From Alphaproteobacteria bacterium (GTDB lineage Bacteria > Pseudomonadota > Alphaproteobacteria > MPNO01 > UBA830), in NCBI GenBank assembly GCA_964291215.2, contig OZ219790.1, positions 448,001 through 512,000 of the forward strand: a stretch of 64,000 bases of DNA. Reading direction: 5' to 3'. A program made the translations under genes and the position numbers. The notes beneath the pieces were generated by a model, which was not told the origin of the DNA, made no database searches, and saw nothing but the letters and a program-made list of their open reading frames with translations. This document shows positions 27,868 through 37,798 of this stretch, one piece after another. Each line of letters starts with the position of its first letter. Position 1 is the stretch's first letter.

Positions 27868-28942
27868 CTATGGAATCGCTTCCGAACCCATATCGGTTGG
27901 TAAGGGCTCCAAGGTCTGCACGATCTCCTCCAGAATATCGAATACCTTTTCAAAGTGCCGAAAGTCTTCGTCCGTGCCTTCGTTACGTAGCCAATCGCAG
28001 AGATTTCTTTTCTCGTCCTTATTTACACTCCAACATTCTGGAACTTCCTCTTGCCGTCCTCTAATGGTTCTGGCATGAGATGAGGCGATATCTATAAATC
28101 TCGGGTGATGTTTCCGAGCCCTCTCCAAAGTTGTCCTATCAAAAAGATTCTCGACACCTTTCTTTATGGGATGATTTTCGAAGTAAGGCATTTTCCTTTT
28201 GTAGATGCTGTCTTCCCTGTCTTCCCTGTCTTGGCTTTCCGGATCATGCAGCAAGATTATCATCTTTTCAGACAATGTGTCAACATTTGCAAGCTTTTTT
28301 AGGCTCGTCCATATCATCTTCAGATTTCCATTACCCCCAGAGCATTTAATTTCGAATTTTTCCAGGACGTCATTTTTCCCAAGGAACATTGCCGCACTCC
28401 TAAGGTAATCTCGATCTGTTTCACCTTCAACGATTATCATCAAATGTTGTGCACTTTCAACCAAATACCGAACCTCATTTGAAAATCTTGTAGTGTCCTT
28501 ATACGCCTGAAATGCTTGATCGAACTCGTCAAACTCCTCTGGAGAGATGCGAGAGCCGCTCGGAAGGTCATAGATCTCGAATCCGTCGTCTCCAAACACC
28601 TTTGCCATTCCGAGGGCAAACAACACCGAATGCGTAGTCATTACAAACTGAATTTGAGGAAACATCCGAATCAGTGTCGGGAGTATATCGTGCTGATGTC
28701 GTGAATGAAGATGCAGGTCAACCTCATCAACTACTACAATCCCTTTCACGGTTTCGATCGAAGTAAAAGGTATATTCCGCGCTTCCCTGAGGTCAAAATC
28801 CCTCAGTATGGAAAAAAACAGTGTTAACAGAGTCATCTCTCCGCTGGACAGCTGGAAGAGATTAGGGACCAATGCCTGCTGATCGTCCTCCAAGCTTATG
28901 ACTCGATTGTGTCTCCCGCCGATACCAAACCGAAGATTTTTC
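27868..28942 (-). pseudogene. C-terminal half of an ABC/AAA_21 ATPase-TOPRIM (OLD-like) protein
   Basis: LSSGE signature, VVVDEVDLHLH (Walker B), TTHS, IIVEGETD (TOPRIM); low GC. Confidence 0.85.
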
Positions 28943-29038
28943 GTAACTGCCCAGGTCTGCTTCCGGCGATCAGCCACGGGTTATGGACTGAAGCTTCCGG
29001 TCTGCTGCCGCGGACGCGGAGGCGAGCGGCGGGGGATT

Positions 29039-30430
29039 TCAGAGGCGCAGTCTCGGGATCAGCTGCATGGGATCGGGATGCGCCAGGGTTTCGAGGACAT
29101 TCCAGCGTTGCTTTCGGGCTGTTGCGATGACGGAACGCAGGCTGGCGAAGTCGCGGGCGCCTTGCATTGATCGGAAGCCGCCCGAGATTTTCTGGCGCAG
29201 CTTGCCCATGCGGAGGTCGCGCTCGGCCTGGTTGTTCGAGAAGGGGGTTCTCGGGTCGGTGAGGAAGCGCAGGCAGCCCTCCTTGTATTTCTGGAGCCGG
29301 AGGGCGAGGTTGTGACCGATGCGGCGCTTTTGTCGTCCGTGCTTTCCGCTCTGGAGGGGCGCCATCTCTTCGTGAGAGGCGATGGCCTGCTCAAGGATGC
29401 GGTCCCAGGCTCGGGAGATGCGGGCCACCAGTGAAGCGGGCAGGTCGCGGTCATTCTTGCGGGCGAAGCGGGCGGCTCTGTTGGCACGGCTGAGGAGCCG
29501 GTGCGTGGTGGCTGCCCAGTTCTCGATCTCGATCAGGGCTTGGAGTTCGCGCAGGTGATGGGCATTGCAGGCCCCGTGGCGCACGCCTTGGAGAGCGAAG
29601 TAGGTGGCGTAGTCGTCATGGATGACGATGCCGTTGAGCTTCTCGTCGATGTGGCTGCGCCCGGCGGCGATGCGCAGGATGGTCAGCAACGGGGTGCACA
29701 GTACGTGGAGCCATTGGGTCCGGGCGGCGATGCGGATGCCGGTCTCGTCGAGGTGTTTGACCGGGGCCGCGGTGCGGATGATCTCGCCGACACGGTCGAG
29801 GAAGCCCTCGAAGCGCCGGGCGGTGCGTCTGCCCATGGCGGCGATGGTGGCGGTTGAGAGCCTGACCGCGAAGAGGTCGCTCATGACTTCGGCGACGCGC
29901 TTCTCCGGAATGAACTGCGCGTGCAGCAGGTAGGTCACCCACGCGGTGATACGCGGCCCGTACTGGACCGGGGCGCCGTTCGGGAAGACGGCTGTCGTCA
30001 CGGTGCCGCAGGCGGCACAGAGGCAGCGGTGCTCGGTGACCTCAAGGGGCTGCGGCACATCGAAGACCTGCCGGCAGACGGGGGCTCGGTGACGCTCAGC
30101 GGCCGACAGCGGCGCGCCGCAGCCCGCACAGGCGCAGGGATCATGATCGACGACGTGGTCGGGCGTCGCGGTCCGCTCCAGAGTGGTTCCCTTGTGGCTG
30201 ACCGCCGCCTGTCGGACGTGCCGCTCCGGGTGCGCTGGGGTCCGCTCTTCTTCTTCAGACCGTCGCTGGCCGGCGACCGGGAGCTGGTGGTGCTGTCGAG
30301 CGCGGCACTGCGCTCGAGTTCGGCAATCCGCTCGCGCAAGTGGGCGTTCTCCCGCTCCAGCGCGTCGTTCTCCCTGACCAGCGCCGCGCTCAGGCGCAGC
30401 AGCCCCTGGCCCGGATGGCTTTGATGACCG
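29039..30430 (-). pseudogene. IS66 transposase, frameshifted in the N-terminal third
   Basis: DSTTSSRSPASD, VQYGPR, HLDETG, HDDYATY, HGACNAHHLREL, FSNNQAERDLR, KISGGFRS. Confidence 0.9.
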
Positions 30431-30512
30431 TCATCGCCAGGCATTGTGGGGTGAAAAGGTCCTGCAGGCACGCAAAAGCCTCGTCGTGGCCGGCGAGGTC
30501 CTCGCGCCACCG

Positions 30513-31172
30513 TCACGGGACCTCGACGGCCATGATCGCGGCCAGCACCGCCAGGCGTTCGCCCGCCGGCATGGCCTCGTAGAGCCGGCCCCAGTTGGCC
30601 GCCTTGCGCTTGATGCGCTGGCGGTCGGTGAAGTTCCGGCCGGCGAAGCGCGCCCAGTGCACCCGGTCGGGCGCGAAGTTGAACCACACCACCTCGGTCC
30701 GCACCCGGGCCTGGGTCGTCACCTGCAGCGCCAGCCGGCGCCAGCCCGACAGCAGGTCGTCATAGAGCGCAGACGGGTGGCCCGAGACCATCACCTGGCA
30801 GGGCAGACCCTTGAGCAGCTCAAGCAGCGCGACGTGGTCGGCCTCCGCATACTCGAAGCGGTAGCGCTGCGACGAACGCCGGGTCGCGTGCAGATAGGGC
30901 GGATCGCTGTAGACCAGCTCCGGGCCCAGAAACGCAAACGACGCCAGAAAGGAGTGGGCGCAGCCATGCACCAACTCCACCGGGTAGTCGCAGCCAAAGG
31001 CCTCAAGCGCCCGCTCATCGAGGTCGATCCCGATCGAGCGCACGGCAGCAGGCTTGCGCTTCATCAGCGCACCGCCCCCCAGGTGACTCTCGATATAGAC
31101 AGAGTGCGGCGGCATCAGCGCAATCAGCGCCTGGCTCAGACCCGTCGTCGCCTTCGATCCGAAATACCCCAC
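30513..31172 (-). CDS. D12-class (Dam-like) N6-adenine DNA methyltransferase, IS66 passenger
   Basis: YFGSK, YIESHLGGGA (SAM-binding motif), YSDPPY (catalytic), MVSG, E..W.N; open frame. Confidence 0.88.
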   Translation of the reverse strand: MGYFGSKATTGLSQALIALMPPHSVYIESHLGGGALMKRKPAAVRSIGIDLDERALEAFGCDYPVELVHGCAHSFLASFAFLGPELVYSDPPYLHATRRSSQRYRFEYAEADHVALLELLKGLPCQVMVSGHPSALYDDLLSGWRRLALQVTTQARVRTEVVWFNFAPDRVHWARFAGRNFTDRQRIKRKAANWGRLYEAMPAGERLAVLAAIMAVEVP

Positions 31173-31299
31173 CAGCCGCTCCTCCCATGCGAGAGGGCAA
31201 CCCATAGGCGCGCGCGCCTATGCAGTCAAGGCCGAGAGCAGCGACACGGCGAACAAAATCAGCAAGCTCTCACACTTGGCAGGGTACCTGGGTAGTTAC

Positions 31300-32140
31300 G
31301 ATTTTTCTTTGCCGCCAATTCTGGCATAACGGCATGCAAGATTTCCAGTACCGAATTGTACATATTTGTTGCATCGCCTTGATACCCAAGAAACAGGGGA
31401 AGCATTGCAGTTTGCTTCTGCTCCTTATCCGGAGCAGCGGGAAGGGAAATGGGAATGTTGCCCGATTGTATTTCGAAAGCTGCACGGTCATAGGCAACGT
31501 CATACAACCAATCGTGGATGTCTCGAAGCGGCGAGTGAGCGATCAATCGACGTCGAGTTTCTCCTTCCCGGCGAGAGCCTTGTGTATAATGTGGCTTGGC
31601 GCGTAGATTGTCCTTATTCAGCCAAGCTGGTTCTTCAGTACGATTGGATGGAAAATAGAGCAAACAATTTTCTGATATTATGTTTTTTACGGCCGTGATT
31701 TGTGAAGGATCCAGTATGTTAGATTTGAAGTGATCCATTTCTTCGTCATCGAAGTGAGCTTCCCAAGCATCAAACCCGGGGCTGCCGTCTGGCATCGGTG
31801 CTTGGGTATACTCTTTCCTTGGTTTTCTCAGGCGGAGTTCTTGAATAAAATATTCAGGATGAAAGTCACATCTAGCATAATAATATTCGGCCCCAACGGA
31901 GATGTAGGAGCTGCTGCGCAGCTTGAATACCCTGTCGGCATCCAATTCTCTCGATTCCAGATAAACGCTGTCCTTGGCAATCACCATGGCATTGACTATG
32001 TGGGAAAGGACTATGGTCTTGCCGGAGCCGTTTTCGCCAACAAGCAAAACGGGTTTCGGTCGATCTCCGTCGAACGGGAAGTGGAGGTCAAGATTCCGGA
32101 GCGGGCCGTAGTTTGCCAGCTGAAGCCATGTCAGGTACAT
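31300..32140 (-). pseudogene. N-terminal half of the OLD-like ATPase-TOPRIM protein
   Basis: LQLANYGP, LLVGENGSGKT (Walker A), YFPSNR; rejoins 27868..28934 in frame (AAKKN|LRFGIG), giving 635 aa. Confidence 0.88.
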
Positions 32141-32520: not shown

Positions 32521-34228
32521 CGTTTGATGAAACAGGGGCTTGGCGGCTTCTGCTGTGGCAGGGTGGCTGATGGCGGGGGCGGGGACGCGTGAGCGTGTTC
32601 TTATCGGTGACGTAGTTCCCGACGCCAAAACTGCTTCCGGCGGTCGGCTCCGCACCCCGTATTGTGCCCGGCCATTGGCCGTGGACGCGCGGCAAAACGA
32701 ACCGCATCCGCATGGCGGATGCGTGTCCTTCCGACCGCTGTCCCCGCCTCCACCGTAGCGATGCCACGTCGTGATCCTGTGCGACCGTGGCGAAAGGGCG
32801 CAATGAGGAGAAGAGGATGAAGACGGAAGGCTTGCATGTTGTCCGGGCGCGCGCGGCGGGTCTGGACGTGCACAAGATGGAGATTACCGCGACGGTTCGC
32901 CTGTGCGAGGGCGAGCCGGTGGTCGAGACGCGCTGCTTCGGCACGCCGCCCAGCGGTCTGGAGGCGATGGTCGCCTGGCTGAACGACCATGGCGTCGAGG
33001 TTGCGGTGATGGAAGGGACCGGCATCTACTGGCATGCGCCCTTCGCGGCCCTGGAAGCGGCCGGGCTCGAGGCGATCCTGGTGCACGCGCAGCAGGTGAA
33101 GCAGTTGAAGGGGCGCAAGACCGACATGACCGACAGCGTATGGCTGGCCTGCGTGTGCCAGTTCGGGCTCTGCACGCCGTCCCATGTGCCGCCCGAGCCG
33201 TTCCGGGAGTTGCGCGCCTTGAGCCGCCAGCGTCGCACCCTGGTCGGACAGCGCTCCACCGTGCGCAACCGTGTGCAGAAGATCATCGACCGCGCCGGCG
33301 TGCGCATCGGCGGCATCCTCTCCGACGTCTTCGGCCTCAACGGGCGCAAGATCCTCGACGGCCTGGCGCAGGGCGTGGAGCGCGAGGTCATTCTTGCCTC
33401 GCTCACCGGCCATGTCGCCAGCAAGCTGGAAGGGCTCGGCGAGGCGCTCTCGCTCAGCCTGGGCGACAACGAACGCTTCATGCTCGGCGACCTGCTGGCG
33501 GAGCATGACGCGCTGGAGGCGCGCATCGCCTCCTACACCGCGCAGATCGACGGGCAGATGACGCCGTGGGAGGAGCAGCTCCGTCTGCTGACCACCATCC
33601 CCGGGATCGACCGCATCGCCGCCTCGACCATCCTGATCGAGATCGGTCCCGATATCGGGGCCTTCGCCTCCAAGGAGCACTTCGCCGCCTGGGCCGGGCT
33701 GTGCCCCGGCAACAACGAGAGCGGCGGAAAGCGCCGCAACGCGCGCACCCGAAAGGGCTCCAGAACCCTGCGCGCCAGCCTCGTCGAGTGCGCCCACGGC
33801 ACCGCCCGAACCAAGGGATGCCAGTTCGAGGCCCACCACCGCGCCCTCGCCGCACGGCGCGGATACAAGCGCGCCATCGTCGCCGGCGCACACAAGATGC
33901 TGCGCATCGTCCATGTCGTCCTCAAGACCGCCACGCCCTACTACGACCGCACCGCCGACTACGACGCTCTGATGGTCAAACGCAACGCCCCGCGCTGGAT
34001 CCGAATGCTCCGACGATACGGCTACATCGCACCCGTCAACGCGCCAGAACTCAACCCCGCCTGAGCCTCCTGAAACACGCCAGCCGGCAACGCGGGACTG
34101 CTACGGGCCACATCGGGGAAGTCCAACGCTCGTCCCTGCCGCGCCGGTCTCGGCCACCGACCCCAACTCCGCAACACGGCGTTGGAACCCCTCCGCGCGC
34201 CCCTCAACCGAATCTGTTTCACGGCAAC
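32521..34228 (+). mobile_element. IS110/IS1111-family element (ends approximate)
   Basis: Intact transposase with about 300 bp of upstream and 160 bp of downstream non-coding DNA; short inverted repeat TGAAACAG (32528) and CTGTTTCA (34214). Confidence 0.7.
32817..34064 (+). CDS. IS110-family DEDD transposase/recombinase
   Basis: GLDVHK, VMEGTG.YW, KTDMTDS, TIPGI, WAGLCP...ESGG. Confidence 0.95.
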   Translation: MKTEGLHVVRARAAGLDVHKMEITATVRLCEGEPVVETRCFGTPPSGLEAMVAWLNDHGVEVAVMEGTGIYWHAPFAALEAAGLEAILVHAQQVKQLKGRKTDMTDSVWLACVCQFGLCTPSHVPPEPFRELRALSRQRRTLVGQRSTVRNRVQKIIDRAGVRIGGILSDVFGLNGRKILDGLAQGVEREVILASLTGHVASKLEGLGEALSLSLGDNERFMLGDLLAEHDALEARIASYTAQIDGQMTPWEEQLRLLTTIPGIDRIAASTILIEIGPDIGAFASKEHFAAWAGLCPGNNESGGKRRNARTRKGSRTLRASLVECAHGTARTKGCQFEAHHRALAARRGYKRAIVAGAHKMLRIVHVVLKTATPYYDRTADYDALMVKRNAPRWIRMLRRYGYIAPVNAPELNPA

Positions 34229-34540: not shown

Positions 34541-35061
34541 GCAAAAAGAGCGATCTCCCCTTCGGCAGCGAGTTTTCGCCCTCGCAGATCGAACTACCGA
34601 AGGCGCTGGGGTTTGCGGCTCGGCATGGCGGTAATTGGCGCGCCTTCGAGGAGACCGTGCGGGAAGCCTGGTTTGAGGACCACAAGACCAGCGCCTACAA
34701 CCGCGCCAAACTCGCCAACAACACAAAGCTGGGAATGATCGCCTACGGGATTATTGACCGGGATGCAACGCTGACCCCGTTCGGCCAGGAACTCAACGAC
34801 CTGCGCAATGACGACGATGCGCTGCATGATCGATTGGCTAGGCATATCCTCCTCAACCTTCATGGAATGACCCTTGTCCAGTGTATTCGCGACATGGTCG
34901 CCGCGGGCGAGCAGGTAAACCTGACTACTCTTCGGGAGGGTCTGGCGGCCCGCGGCATCCACTATCCATCAGGCGGCAAGCATCCAAGCATGATGCGCCT
35001 GTGGCTTGCGAAGGCTGGCGTCTTCATCGGCAGTCGGTGGCAAATCAATGAAAACCGGATC
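34537..35061 (+). pseudogene. Probable restriction endonuclease, N-terminal part, truncated by IS66
   Basis: Coupled to the RHH gene by a GTGA overlap; N-terminus KSDLPFGSEFSP recalled from Mrr-cat-type restriction proteins; frame runs into GTAACTGCTCA at 35062; no catalytic domain present. Confidence 0.55.
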
Positions 35062-35739
35062 GTAACTGCTCACCCCCTGGTTCCGGCTTGATGTCGGGGT
35101 AGAGCAACGAACGGGTTTTCGTGGAGATTTGACACTGCATGCCGATTCGCTTAGTGGTGGTCATCGAGAACGACGGGGACCGCCAGTGGGCTACTTTGGA
35201 TCGAAGGCGACGAGCGGGCTGTGCCAGCTGCTTCCGGGGCTCCAGCCCCCGCATGATCTGTATATGGAAACGCATCTCGGAAGCGGCGCGCTGATGAAGC
35301 GCAAGGCCGGGTGATGGCGACGGTCAACGCGGCGCGCGAGGAGTTCGAAGCGGCCAAGACCCGGATCGCGGCGCTGCGTGCGGCCGGCAAGGTGGCGGAA
35401 GAGGCCGTGATCCGCGTCCTCGTCATCCTGCTCGACATCATCATCGTCGTCCTTCTGGAGAAGACCACGCACGAGCCGGAACTCCGGTCTGCCGCCGTCA
35501 CAGACGGACAAGAGCGTGCCGGGAGCAACGGCCCGAAGCCGAACCGGCAGATGGGCGACAACCTGCGCAAGATCATCGTCGAGGAGACGGTCGCGGCCTG
35601 CGACGCCTGCGGCGCTGACATCGACGGCCCCGTCGATCGGGAGCGCCGCGTCCTCTACGACATCGTGTTCGAGGTCGTGCCGCGCCGAGATCAAGGAATG
35701 CCCGAAGTGCAAGGCCCGGAACAACCAAGGGTATACCAA
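35062..35739 (+). mobile_element. Left part of an IS66-family element (methyltransferase stub plus degenerate transposase 5' end)
   Basis: GTAACTGCTCAC terminus; GYFGSKAT..HLGSGALMKRK* at 35187-35314; LLEKTT, ACDACGAD, YDIVFEV, KECPKC; near-identical to 63767-64000. Confidence 0.8.
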
Positions 35740-35815
35740 GGGTACTGTAACTTGATGTCTGGAAATTTGTCTGAGGTTTGCGCTTTGAGGCGTTTCACTG
35801 GGGGGGGGGGGCTAG

Positions 35816-37798
35816 CCCTCGCATGTCACGGAAATTTTAGCTGGACAACGGTGTTTCGGCGTGGCATAAGTGTCCCATGTCACAGTCTCAGATCAGCCGC
35901 ACATTGCGGGACGAGGCAGCAGTTGCGCGGATCGCGTCGCTGCTGTCCTGTGAGCAGTTCGACAGCCGGTCGGCTCTGGGTCGTCTGCGAGGAGTTTGCC
36001 TTTGTCGACGCGCGCGGCCGTCTGCAGCTTGCCGGCTGCATGAAGGCGCTGAGGGCGCCCGGAGATCGTCCTGCCGGTGCCGAAGTCACCGACAATCGAC
36101 CGCCGGCCTCGCCTGTTGGTATCGCTGCAGAGGTTCCGGCGCGCGCATTCGGGATCTCGAGATCATCGTGGTCGGGGATCGTATTGACCGAGCGGTCACG
36201 CTGATTGCGCGTGAACACCCGCGACGACCTTCGCCGGCTGCCAATATCTCGTGGGCTCGGCGCACGGGTGGCGGGGTTTGCCGCCGCCGCGCGGCGCGGG
36301 ACCGCTGGATGGAACGACGGGCAGCGCCGGAACCACCTGCAGCGGATCGTCTGTCTGAGCCGTTTCTTGATCAGGTGCTCTGCCCGCCCAGCCATGTGCG
36401 CATCCTGCGCCGCGTGACTTCGAGGACCGTTTCGACCATGGCTCAGTTTTGCCGATGAAGGTTACCCTGCCTGCGCGCGGCCAACTTCCTGTGCAGGACC
36501 GAAGGCCGGCAGGATCGGGAGCACTGGGAGACGGTGAAGACGGTCTTCGTGGCCGAACTGGAGCGCGCAGGAAGCTGGGGAGGTCGATCATGCGCCCTCG
36601 CCGGGCGAAGGTCTGAACGACTGGGCGCAGAACGAGTTTGGAGGGGGGTGACAAGCGACTTTCTGCGCGCCTGGAGCGCCGGCCTTCTGGCGGCCGGTCA
36701 GAAGATCAATGCGTCTCCCAGCGCCGACAACACCGCGATCAATGCGTTTTACCGGATGGTCGCCCTCGGAGATCACGCCGGCGAACATTCTTGCGCCGCA
36801 CCGTGAGCGCAGCATCCGGCGCATCCGTGGCCAGAAGACGGTTCTTGCGGCACGGACCTGAACTTCTCCCGGCTGCGACGGCCTGCAGGTGAGAACCAGA
36901 CCGGGGCCTCAAGCCTGCACCTGCACGCGACCCTGGCGGTGACTGACCTGCCACTCGGGGTGCTGGGTCCGGTGAAGCCCCGGTCGCAGGAGACACGCCG
37001 CAGCTCGAGGGGTTCAAGGCGCTGCCACCCCGGCGGCAAGACGCGCGTCATCTCCGTCGGGAAGCCGACATCTTCGAGCTGTTCGACACGCGCTTGCCCC
37101 GCGTCGATCTGCGCGCCAAGCATGACAGGGTGCTGAAGGAGGGAAGGCTGTTCGCCGTCATGGCCGGCGGCCTGATTGAGATCGAGGGACTGACGGAGCA
37201 AGCCAGCCGGAAGAAGGCCCGCGCGACAGAAGCGCCTGGCGAGTTGCGGTCCGTCACCCGTGACGGGCACCGCCCCCAGCGCGAAGCCGGTGTCCCTGCA
37301 CGGGGTCAGGGAGCGCCCGAGGGTGAGGATCCCGTGGTGCCTGCTGACCACCGTGCGGGTCGGCGAAGGAGGCGGCCGACATCGTCGGCTTCTACCTTCA
37401 GCGCTGGCGAATCGAGGATTACGTGCTCAAATCCGGATGCAGGGTGGAACACCTTCTGTTCCGCACCGGCTGCAGCGGGCGATCAACGCCGTCATCGCGC
37501 ATCATGACCCTGCTCGGCCGCCAGGTGCGAGCCGCAGCTGATGTTCACCGACAGCGAACTCGCGCGACTACGCACACAAGTACGCCCTGAAGGAACCGGA
37601 GCGTCTCGCCGATGCGGTGCACCTGGTCGCCCATCTCGGCGGCTACCGCAGCACGCCCGGGTCACCAGATCATGTGGCCAGACACACCAGCGCCGCACTG
37701 GGTCACCAAATCGGCCGGGAAATCGGGTTCCGGGATGGACAAAGACACGCGTGAACACGTAAACCATTGTCAACCAGATTTGTCATGACACGGCAGGG
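35816..37798 (+). mobile_element. Degenerate IS4-family / DUF4338 element, copy 2 (inverted relative to copy 1)
   Basis: Near-identical reverse complement of 24829-26814; CTAG at 35812-15 and 37799-802. Confidence 0.9.

Follow-up and report, generated by a model that had tools for sequence, protein, structure and literature searches.

The window (the whole stretch of DNA that was analysed, 64,000 nucleotides) contains on its reverse strand an insertion sequence (IS) of the IS66 family, in which a gene for a protein with a Dam-like fold, hereafter the passenger, lies 5' of the transposase gene tnpC. The features are listed in Table 1. The element ends read GTAACT(A/G)CCCAGGT and match as inverted repeats at 13 of 14 bases. 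An earlier note, made from the sequence alone, had described a 2357-bp element with GTAAC termini and an exact 8-bp duplication. This was borne out by the ends and by the 12 near-identical full-length copies in the genome, 11 of which are flanked by their own exact 8-bp duplications; the chance match of two random 8-mers in this genome is 4e-5. Excision of the element together with one duplication restores a host frame of 635 aa; the frame is not restored when both duplications are kept. Contigs from three of four sequencing runs (related samples) carry the empty site, with position 28934 joined to 31300 and 8 shared letters, and the host gene is uninterrupted in three runs.

The G+C content is 67% in the element and 45-48% in the surrounding low-G+C host gene. 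Both halves of this gene have matches to PtuA-like ABC-type ATPases, which score far under the NCBIfam cut-off. The earlier note had placed the insertion in a putative defence nuclease gene; the matches indicate an ABC-type ATPase instead, and the one hint of a nuclease domain is the VEGETD motif, which we take to be TOPRIM-like. The gene (27868-32140, reverse strand) possibly encodes, as we assume, an OLD/GajA-like defence protein. The same 8-bp duplication is found at a second copy (C1:922207) with different outer flanks, and the targets of the 12-copy family (family A) are A+T-rich, with 28% G+C versus 64% in the genome. Positions 32787-34064 of the window (forward strand) hold an intact 425-aa ORF that by eye resembles an IS110 transposase; one other near-full copy of it exists in the genome.

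Table 1. Positions of the element, its parts and the interrupted host gene in the window
Feature	Position	Strand	Remark
IS66-family element, ISBst12-type layout with Upf31-family cassette	28943..31299 (2357 bp)	-	one of 12 copies
Target-site duplication, copy 1, GATTTTTC	28935..28942	+	
Target-site duplication, copy 2, GATTTTTC	31300..31307	+	empty-site joint, 8 shared letters
Left terminal inverted repeat, GTAACTACCCAGGT	31286..31299	-	
Right terminal inverted repeat, GTAACTGCCCAGGT	28943..28956	+	
Predicted -35 hexamer, TTGACT	31224..31229	-	TTGACA in relatives; inferred from conservation, not called by consensus scan
Predicted operator, CATAG-N10-CTATG	31203..31222	-	within -35/-10 spacer, overlaps -10
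Predicted -10 hexamer, TATGGG	31201..31206	-	degenerate; TATGCT in most metagenome relatives
Passenger, Upf31-family Dam-fold protein	30513..31172	-	219 aa from GTG
Passenger DPPY	30894..30905	-	
Passenger helical C-terminal domain	about 30516..30665	-	with T182 and Q185
GTGA overlap of passenger stop and tnpC start codon	30513..30516	-	
tnpC 5' remnant (DUF6444 coiled coil)	29998..30516	-	out of frame with catalytic part
tnpC 3' remnant (zinc finger and DDE_Tnp_IS66 domain)	29039..30200	-	with in-frame deletions
Interrupted host gene, 5' part (P-loop, ABC-type ATPase)	31300..32140	-	
Interrupted host gene, 3' part (PtuA-like ATPase part and VEGETD motif)	27868..28942	-	

Transposase, passenger and control region

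The transposase is a TnpC-type DDE transposase (PF03050, NF033517; E 5e-39) with 237 bits at a cut-off of 180; the transposase of an intact relative, L013, reaches 283 bits in the same IS66 profile test. Terminal inverted repeats starting with GTAA are of the IS66 type, as is the 8-bp target duplication, which was also found in 47 of 62 complete relatives (within the best 75 of at least 540). The element contains neither tnpA nor tnpB, and the five PF05717 matches of the genome all lie outside the 12 copies. The element belongs to the IS66 family, but not to the classical tnpA/tnpB/tnpC type. According to excerpts of PMC12898284, members of the ISBst12 group (e.g., ISDge4) have a single TnpC-type DDE transposase without tnpA/tnpB, ends that start with GTAACT and an 8-bp duplication; they transpose with one ORF, and ISDge4 is described with one ORF. 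The element of the window lacks tnpA and tnpB and has GTAACT-type ends, but a second conserved gene lies 5' of its tnpC.

The passenger frame is open and contains the motifs YFGSK, ESHLGGG and DPPY. Homologues point to GTG 31172 as the start; ATG 31205, the start in the earlier reading, falls within the palindrome described below and was dropped. The predicted structure (pLDDT 75, pTM 0.71) has a Rossmann-like core and a helical C-terminal part, and the closest folds found with Foldseek are E. coli Dam and DpnM (E about 2e-7, TM about 0.55). With the Dam family (D12, alpha-class; E. coli Dam, DpnM and T4 Dam) the passenger shares the Rossmann-like fold, the SAM motif and the motif order X, I, II, DPPY at an identity of about 12-14%. 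Profile matches are under the cut-off both for PF02086 (E 0.04, 14.1 versus 22 bits) and for TIGR00571 (24.8 versus 114.85 bits). In the Dam layout, the target-recognition domain is located between motif II and DPPY. Only 42 residues separate the two in all 22 IS-borne representatives, so the passenger lacks this domain; unlike the Dam family, it has an extra helical domain at the C-terminus. The earlier assignment as an intact D12-class N6-adenine methyltransferase therefore stands for the motifs, the open frame and the Dam/DpnM-like fold, but not for the D12 profile, and the methylase activity is putative.

Judged by sequence, the passenger is a homologue of Upf31 of IncP-1beta plasmids. It aligns with Upf31 of pBP136 over the full length, C-terminal domain included, with 43% identity in 221 columns (pairwise E 1e-63). 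Among 43 homologues not selected by motif, D90-P91-P92 is invariant and Y93 is conserved in at least 90%; DPPY is present in Upf31 and in 13 of 13 plasmid homologues. A further count of 187/187 for DPPY is in part circular, as DPPY was included in one of the search patterns. The passenger is under purifying selection, with dN/dS values of 0.12-0.25 versus 0.24-0.30 for tnpC (15 pairs from six intact elements), the passenger having the lower value in every pair.

The sequence TTGACT, 1 nt, CATAG-N10-CTATG is situated 63 bases before the first conserved passenger codon. The consensus scan called no promoter here. Sigma-70 has no base preference in the -35/-10 spacer. In 72 unique metagenome promoters, the left half-site has 1.4-1.9 bits per base versus 0.03-0.6 in the N10 spacer, and the palindrome is exact in 43 of them. 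It occurs once per element; 12 of the 13 genome sites are in element copies (about 1.3 sites expected), and other half-site spacings of 6-15 nt gave 0-3 genome sites. The site lies in the predicted promoter and is absent from the IS ends, where the earlier note had proposed to look for the motif of the methylase. The GTGA overlap of stop and start codon is present in 66 of 79 genome loci, while metagenome members mostly have a gap of 3-30 nt. A 5' leader hairpin hiding the ribosome site was rejected, with a median z of 0.15 (88 leaders) versus 0.18 for coding controls. A GATC directly 3' of the -10 hexamer was observed in 44 of 88 metagenome and genome leaders and is absent in the sub-lineage of the window; an input from host Dam methylation at this point is possible.

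Upf31 offers the experimental comparison. In excerpts of Elg et al. 2025 (PMC11997246), its homologues are described on plasmids only. DpnI/MboI digestion and SMRT detected no methylation by Upf31. Genome-wide methylation was absent on induction in a methylase-free strain, the SMRT motif finding was performed in E. coli with an expression vector, and the authors report no kinetic signal whatever. A full-length hybrid repressed the upf31 promoter from 4.76 to 0.09 XylE units; a truncated allele had earlier given no strong repression, the C-terminal part apparently being needed. The C-terminal domain is also predicted to bind KorB (PMC11997246, same excerpts). The upf31 promoter has the layout TTGACA, 1 nt, CATCG, N10, second half-site, i.e., the geometry of the element with one base different per half-site (CATCG versus CATAG). 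By analogy, the passenger likely represses its own transcription.

For the origin of the cassette, a midpoint-rooted tree was calculated from 58 representatives of 140 distinct proteins clustered at 84%. All 22 IS-borne rows form one clade (99/99), nested in a 30-row TAG-operator clade (100/99) that includes eight plasmid proteins. In the 200 nt upstream, five of these eight plasmid genes have a TAG-type palindrome and three have none; a TCG-type palindrome precedes all five other plasmid genes examined. A plasmid origin of the IS cassette is likely on this tree. The groups are best told apart by positions 182 and 185 of the first C-terminal helix, which belongs to the domain apparently required for repression by Upf31. 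At position 182, 29/30 rows of the TAG clade have T and 27/27 other rows have R; at position 185, 30/30 have Q and 25/27 have E. Where a promoter is available, 97 of 102 T/Q records have AG|CT and 19 of 20 R/E records have CG|CG, with no cross cases. A two-residue helix code for the operator type is a prediction and not proof; the match of helix and operator is not independent evidence of co-evolution, because it reflects a single phylogenetic split. Motif X (GSK versus GGK) was rejected as a specificity code, with a poorer fit than the C-terminal helix and exceptions in L172 and L206.

Copies, relatives and other carriers

The transposase is broken in all 12 copies of the genome, and the frame of the passenger is kept. 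Compared with the intact relative L013 (91.5% identity), the window copy has 13 short deletions, mostly with 2-3 repeated bases at their borders. Ten lie in tnpC, one affects the last codons of the passenger, and two are in the left non-coding part. Passenger codons 1-215, although 27% of the element's length, contain none of the 13; the arithmetic chance of this is about 0.02. Of the ten tnpC deletions, six preserve the frame and two (8+7) compensate each other; the net shift is due to the remaining two, of 5 nt each, near 30208 and 30198. The open passenger frame and the frameshifted transposase of the earlier note were thus both confirmed, except that the damage to the transposase consists of ten short deletions and not one.

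The deleted bases are restored in none of the 12 genome copies. An assembly artefact was ruled out for the deletions, as contigs of runs X1 and X2 span the deleted stretch gap-free; one of these two runs may be the source sample. The version of run X3 has 3 substitutions in 451 nt and 37 letters put back (six deletions by comparison) and is in frame. A programmed -1 frameshift was rejected: the relatives are in frame, and visual inspection around the shift revealed no X XXY YYZ run. A helper transposase was also sought in the assembly; no intact cognate tnpC was found, and the classical IS66 elements with defined ends (three of the four with an intact tnpC) have GTAAGC-type ends. Candidate explanations for the spread of the broken form to 12 sites are a lost or unassembled helper, or gene conversion.

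Decay by deletions of mainly 3-23 nt between short repeated bases was observed across the IS copies of the genome, in families B and C alike. Family B has 208 left ends and 178 right ends genome-wide, mostly 1.45-1.65 kb apart as elements (example: window 35050-36600), with exact 8-bp duplications in 99 of 135 delimited copies. Its passenger is reduced to a 40-aa stub and its tnpC is broken; the palindrome is absent from its promoter, and T/Q is kept. With about 180-200 copies, family B multiplied far beyond family A, whose repressor is intact; this is no more than suggestive.

The scan of genome contigs gave at least 540 relatives; the analysis used the best 75 loci, which come from 14 genomes. 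Their genome labels are Alphaproteobacteria (including Rhodobacterales and Paracoccaceae), Dehalococcoidia, Binatia and Tectimicrobiota, and relatives in these four phyla are intact. Within these best 75, both GTAACT ends are present in 62 loci, 57 of which have a tnpC of at least 460 aa. In the best 80 of 573 metagenome loci, an IS66 transposase match was found downstream in 58, upstream in one and not at all in 21, 12 of the latter having less than 350 nt of contig left; both IS66 ends are present in 40 of the 80. The ends, the duplications and the empty site establish the joint mobility of both genes, and the earlier claim that the methyltransferase-like gene moved as part of the IS holds well beyond the window.

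The distribution is patchy. The element has matches in 5 of the 31 related genomes. Among 400 other genomes from the phylum, two carry a homologue, each with about 45% identity and assignable to the plasmid/phage type. At E<=0.001, 3761 passenger homologues were found; relatives also occur on conjugative plasmids and phages, and 0 of 32 viral loci have an IS66 match. The phage-borne Upf31 homologues (L168-L199) have a CATCG-type palindrome at the same promoter position, often accompanied by several related sites in the vicinity; their stretch from motif II to DPPY contains long insertions. On two unrelated plasmids, L207 and L208, the Upf31-type gene overlaps a downstream ORF, and a 7-cyano-7-deazaguanine synthase gene is nearby.

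The cassette is portable. It is located 5' of three IS66 transposase clusters that are about 33% identical to one another, their passengers being 63-77% identical; across all carriers (IS66 clusters, IS701, classical IS66) the passengers are 63-86% identical. One carrier is a 2.78-kb IS701-family unit with inverted ends of about 20 bp, present in two copies in genome G431. Another is a 3212-bp classical IS66 in genome G030, which keeps tnpB on the opposite strand, has an ATGA overlap and shows exact duplications at three of four copies examined. In this element (L229:318-3529), the opposite strand carries tnpB and a tnpA-sized ORF at the far end, both converging on passenger-tnpC. At L088/L089, one locus in two related genomes with undefined ends, an IS701-like gene lies downstream and is a candidate carrier at most. 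IS1634 was rejected as a further carrier, because at L130 it is nested within an IS66 copy. The use of one cassette by unrelated transposases is more in keeping with an expression module than with a protein partner.

Function of the passenger

The features of the locus (joint mobility, Upf31 homology, the palindrome at the promoter position, the stop/start overlap, selection on the passenger and portability) probably, though by no means securely, reflect a plasmid-derived Upf31-family autorepressor cassette that throttles transposase expression. The passenger is likely to be a brake and not a shield, because the plasmid family switches off its own promoter. Passenger and tnpC would be transcribed on one mRNA from one shared predicted promoter. 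A dimer of the passenger product would read the two half-sites of the palindrome via the C-terminal helix with T182 and Q185. Entry into a repressor-free cell would then lead to a burst of transposase, followed by a build-up of the repressor and a shut-down that may act in trans on sister copies too. Regulation of its own transposition was one of two functions offered by the earlier note and is the better one, given the Upf31 autorepressor, the promoter palindrome and the coupling to tnpC; repression in this element is argued from Upf31. Counting against the brake are the degenerate -10 hexamer, the lack of a promoter call by the consensus scan, family B with T/Q but without the palindrome, the three of eight TAG-clade plasmid genes that have none upstream, and the gaps in metagenome members in place of the overlap. 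The conservation of DPPY and the SAM motif also counts against it, as a pure repressor need not keep either.

This conservation, in homologues not selected by motif as well as in the plasmid proteins, speaks for a methylase switch that is active solely on its own 10-base bipartite site, where methylation or hemimethylation would time the opening of the promoter. Such a switch is possible, though rather unlikely. Host Dam methylation times the promoter of IS10 and IS50. Each half-site contains an adenine, and by arithmetic 4.6 Mb should hold only about 4 occurrences of a site with 10 fixed bases, so the motif calling for Upf31 by SMRT was probably short of sites. On the other hand, the kinetic signal of Upf31 is nil in the excerpts of PMC11997246, and the 187/187 count is weakened by its circularity. 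In its furthest form, which we regard as a speculative minority view, the methyltransferase was domesticated as a portable transposition timer that binds and methylates only its own bipartite operator via the two-residue helix code. If true, the timer would be a host-independent epigenetic switch on the transposase for ISBst12-type IS66, classical IS66 and IS701, and it would explain why Upf31 kept its catalytic motifs despite the lack of genome-wide methylation.

The second function of the earlier note, methylation of DNA that shields the element or its target, is improbable. A broad-specificity adenine methylase would protect the element, its circle intermediate or the host from restriction, which is in line with the Dam/DpnM fold, the catalytic motifs, the relatives on conjugative plasmids and phages and a weak PADLOC match to MTase_II (E 1e-21). 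However, Upf31 is an autorepressor without a methylation signal, even genome-wide after induction in a methylase-free strain (PMC11997246, excerpts), the passenger has no recognition domain, and a shield leaves the single conserved promoter palindrome and the tnpC coupling unexplained.

It is more improbable still that the passenger acts as a transpososome accessory in place of TnpA/TnpB, with its C-terminal domain binding to TnpC or to the IS ends. The gene does occupy the accessory-gene slot and is coupled to tnpC, and the KorB binding predicted for Upf31 (PMC11997246, excerpts) is a further point in favour. Against this, passengers of 63-86% identity accompany IS66 transposases of about 33% identity and are also carried by IS701 and by a classical IS66 that keeps tnpB, the palindrome is absent from the ends, and ISBst12-group elements transpose with one ORF (PMC12898284, excerpts). 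Neutral cargo kept as a promoter supplier for tnpC, which could appeal to family B having spread with only the 40-aa stub, is the least credible reading and is largely refuted by the selection signal, i.e., by the dN/dS values under those of tnpC in 15/15 pairs and by 0/13 deletions in codons 1-215.

Comparison with known systems

Transposases of IS are usually restrained by frameshifting, antisense RNA or host Dam methylation. A plasmid-derived repressor with a methyltransferase fold that serves unrelated transposases would represent a mode of control not found in the literature searched, nor was a description of an Upf31- or Dam-like gene inside IS66 found there; such elements may have an entry in the ISfinder/TnPedia catalogue. 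ISBst12-type IS66, transporter IS (tIS) with methyltransferase passengers and Upf31 were known already; what is new, as far as the literature searched in part goes, is their combination. In the element, Upf31 biology is pared down to a single gene with one operator and one output, so that DNA recognition by Upf31 proteins and the role of DPPY become directly testable; a swap of the two helix residues is predicted to change the specificity. Thousands of database entries named 'DNA adenine methylase', to judge by the number of homologues given above, may be regulators.

Like the tIS described in excerpts of PMC9330008 and PMC11891212, the element has a passenger gene within IS ends. The passengers of tIS are defined as uninvolved in transposition, whereas the passenger of the window is likely the regulator of the transposase. 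Methyltransferase passengers are listed for an IS1380-family element, and no IS66 example was seen among the tIS of these excerpts. With the ISBst12 group (PMC12898284, excerpts) the element shares the single TnpC-type transposase, the lack of tnpA/tnpB, the GTAACT ends and the 8-bp duplication, and it differs in the conserved gene 5' of tnpC with its predicted operator. With Upf31 it shares the motifs, the helical C-terminal domain and the promoter geometry with a 5-N10-5 palindrome; the C-terminal helix has R/E in Upf31 and T/Q in the IS passenger. Plasmid pBP136 has 13 perfect CATCG-N10-CGATG sites in four clusters, whereas the IS element has one CATAG-N10-CTATG site, and the Upf31-type passenger here lies within an IS and is coupled to the transposase.
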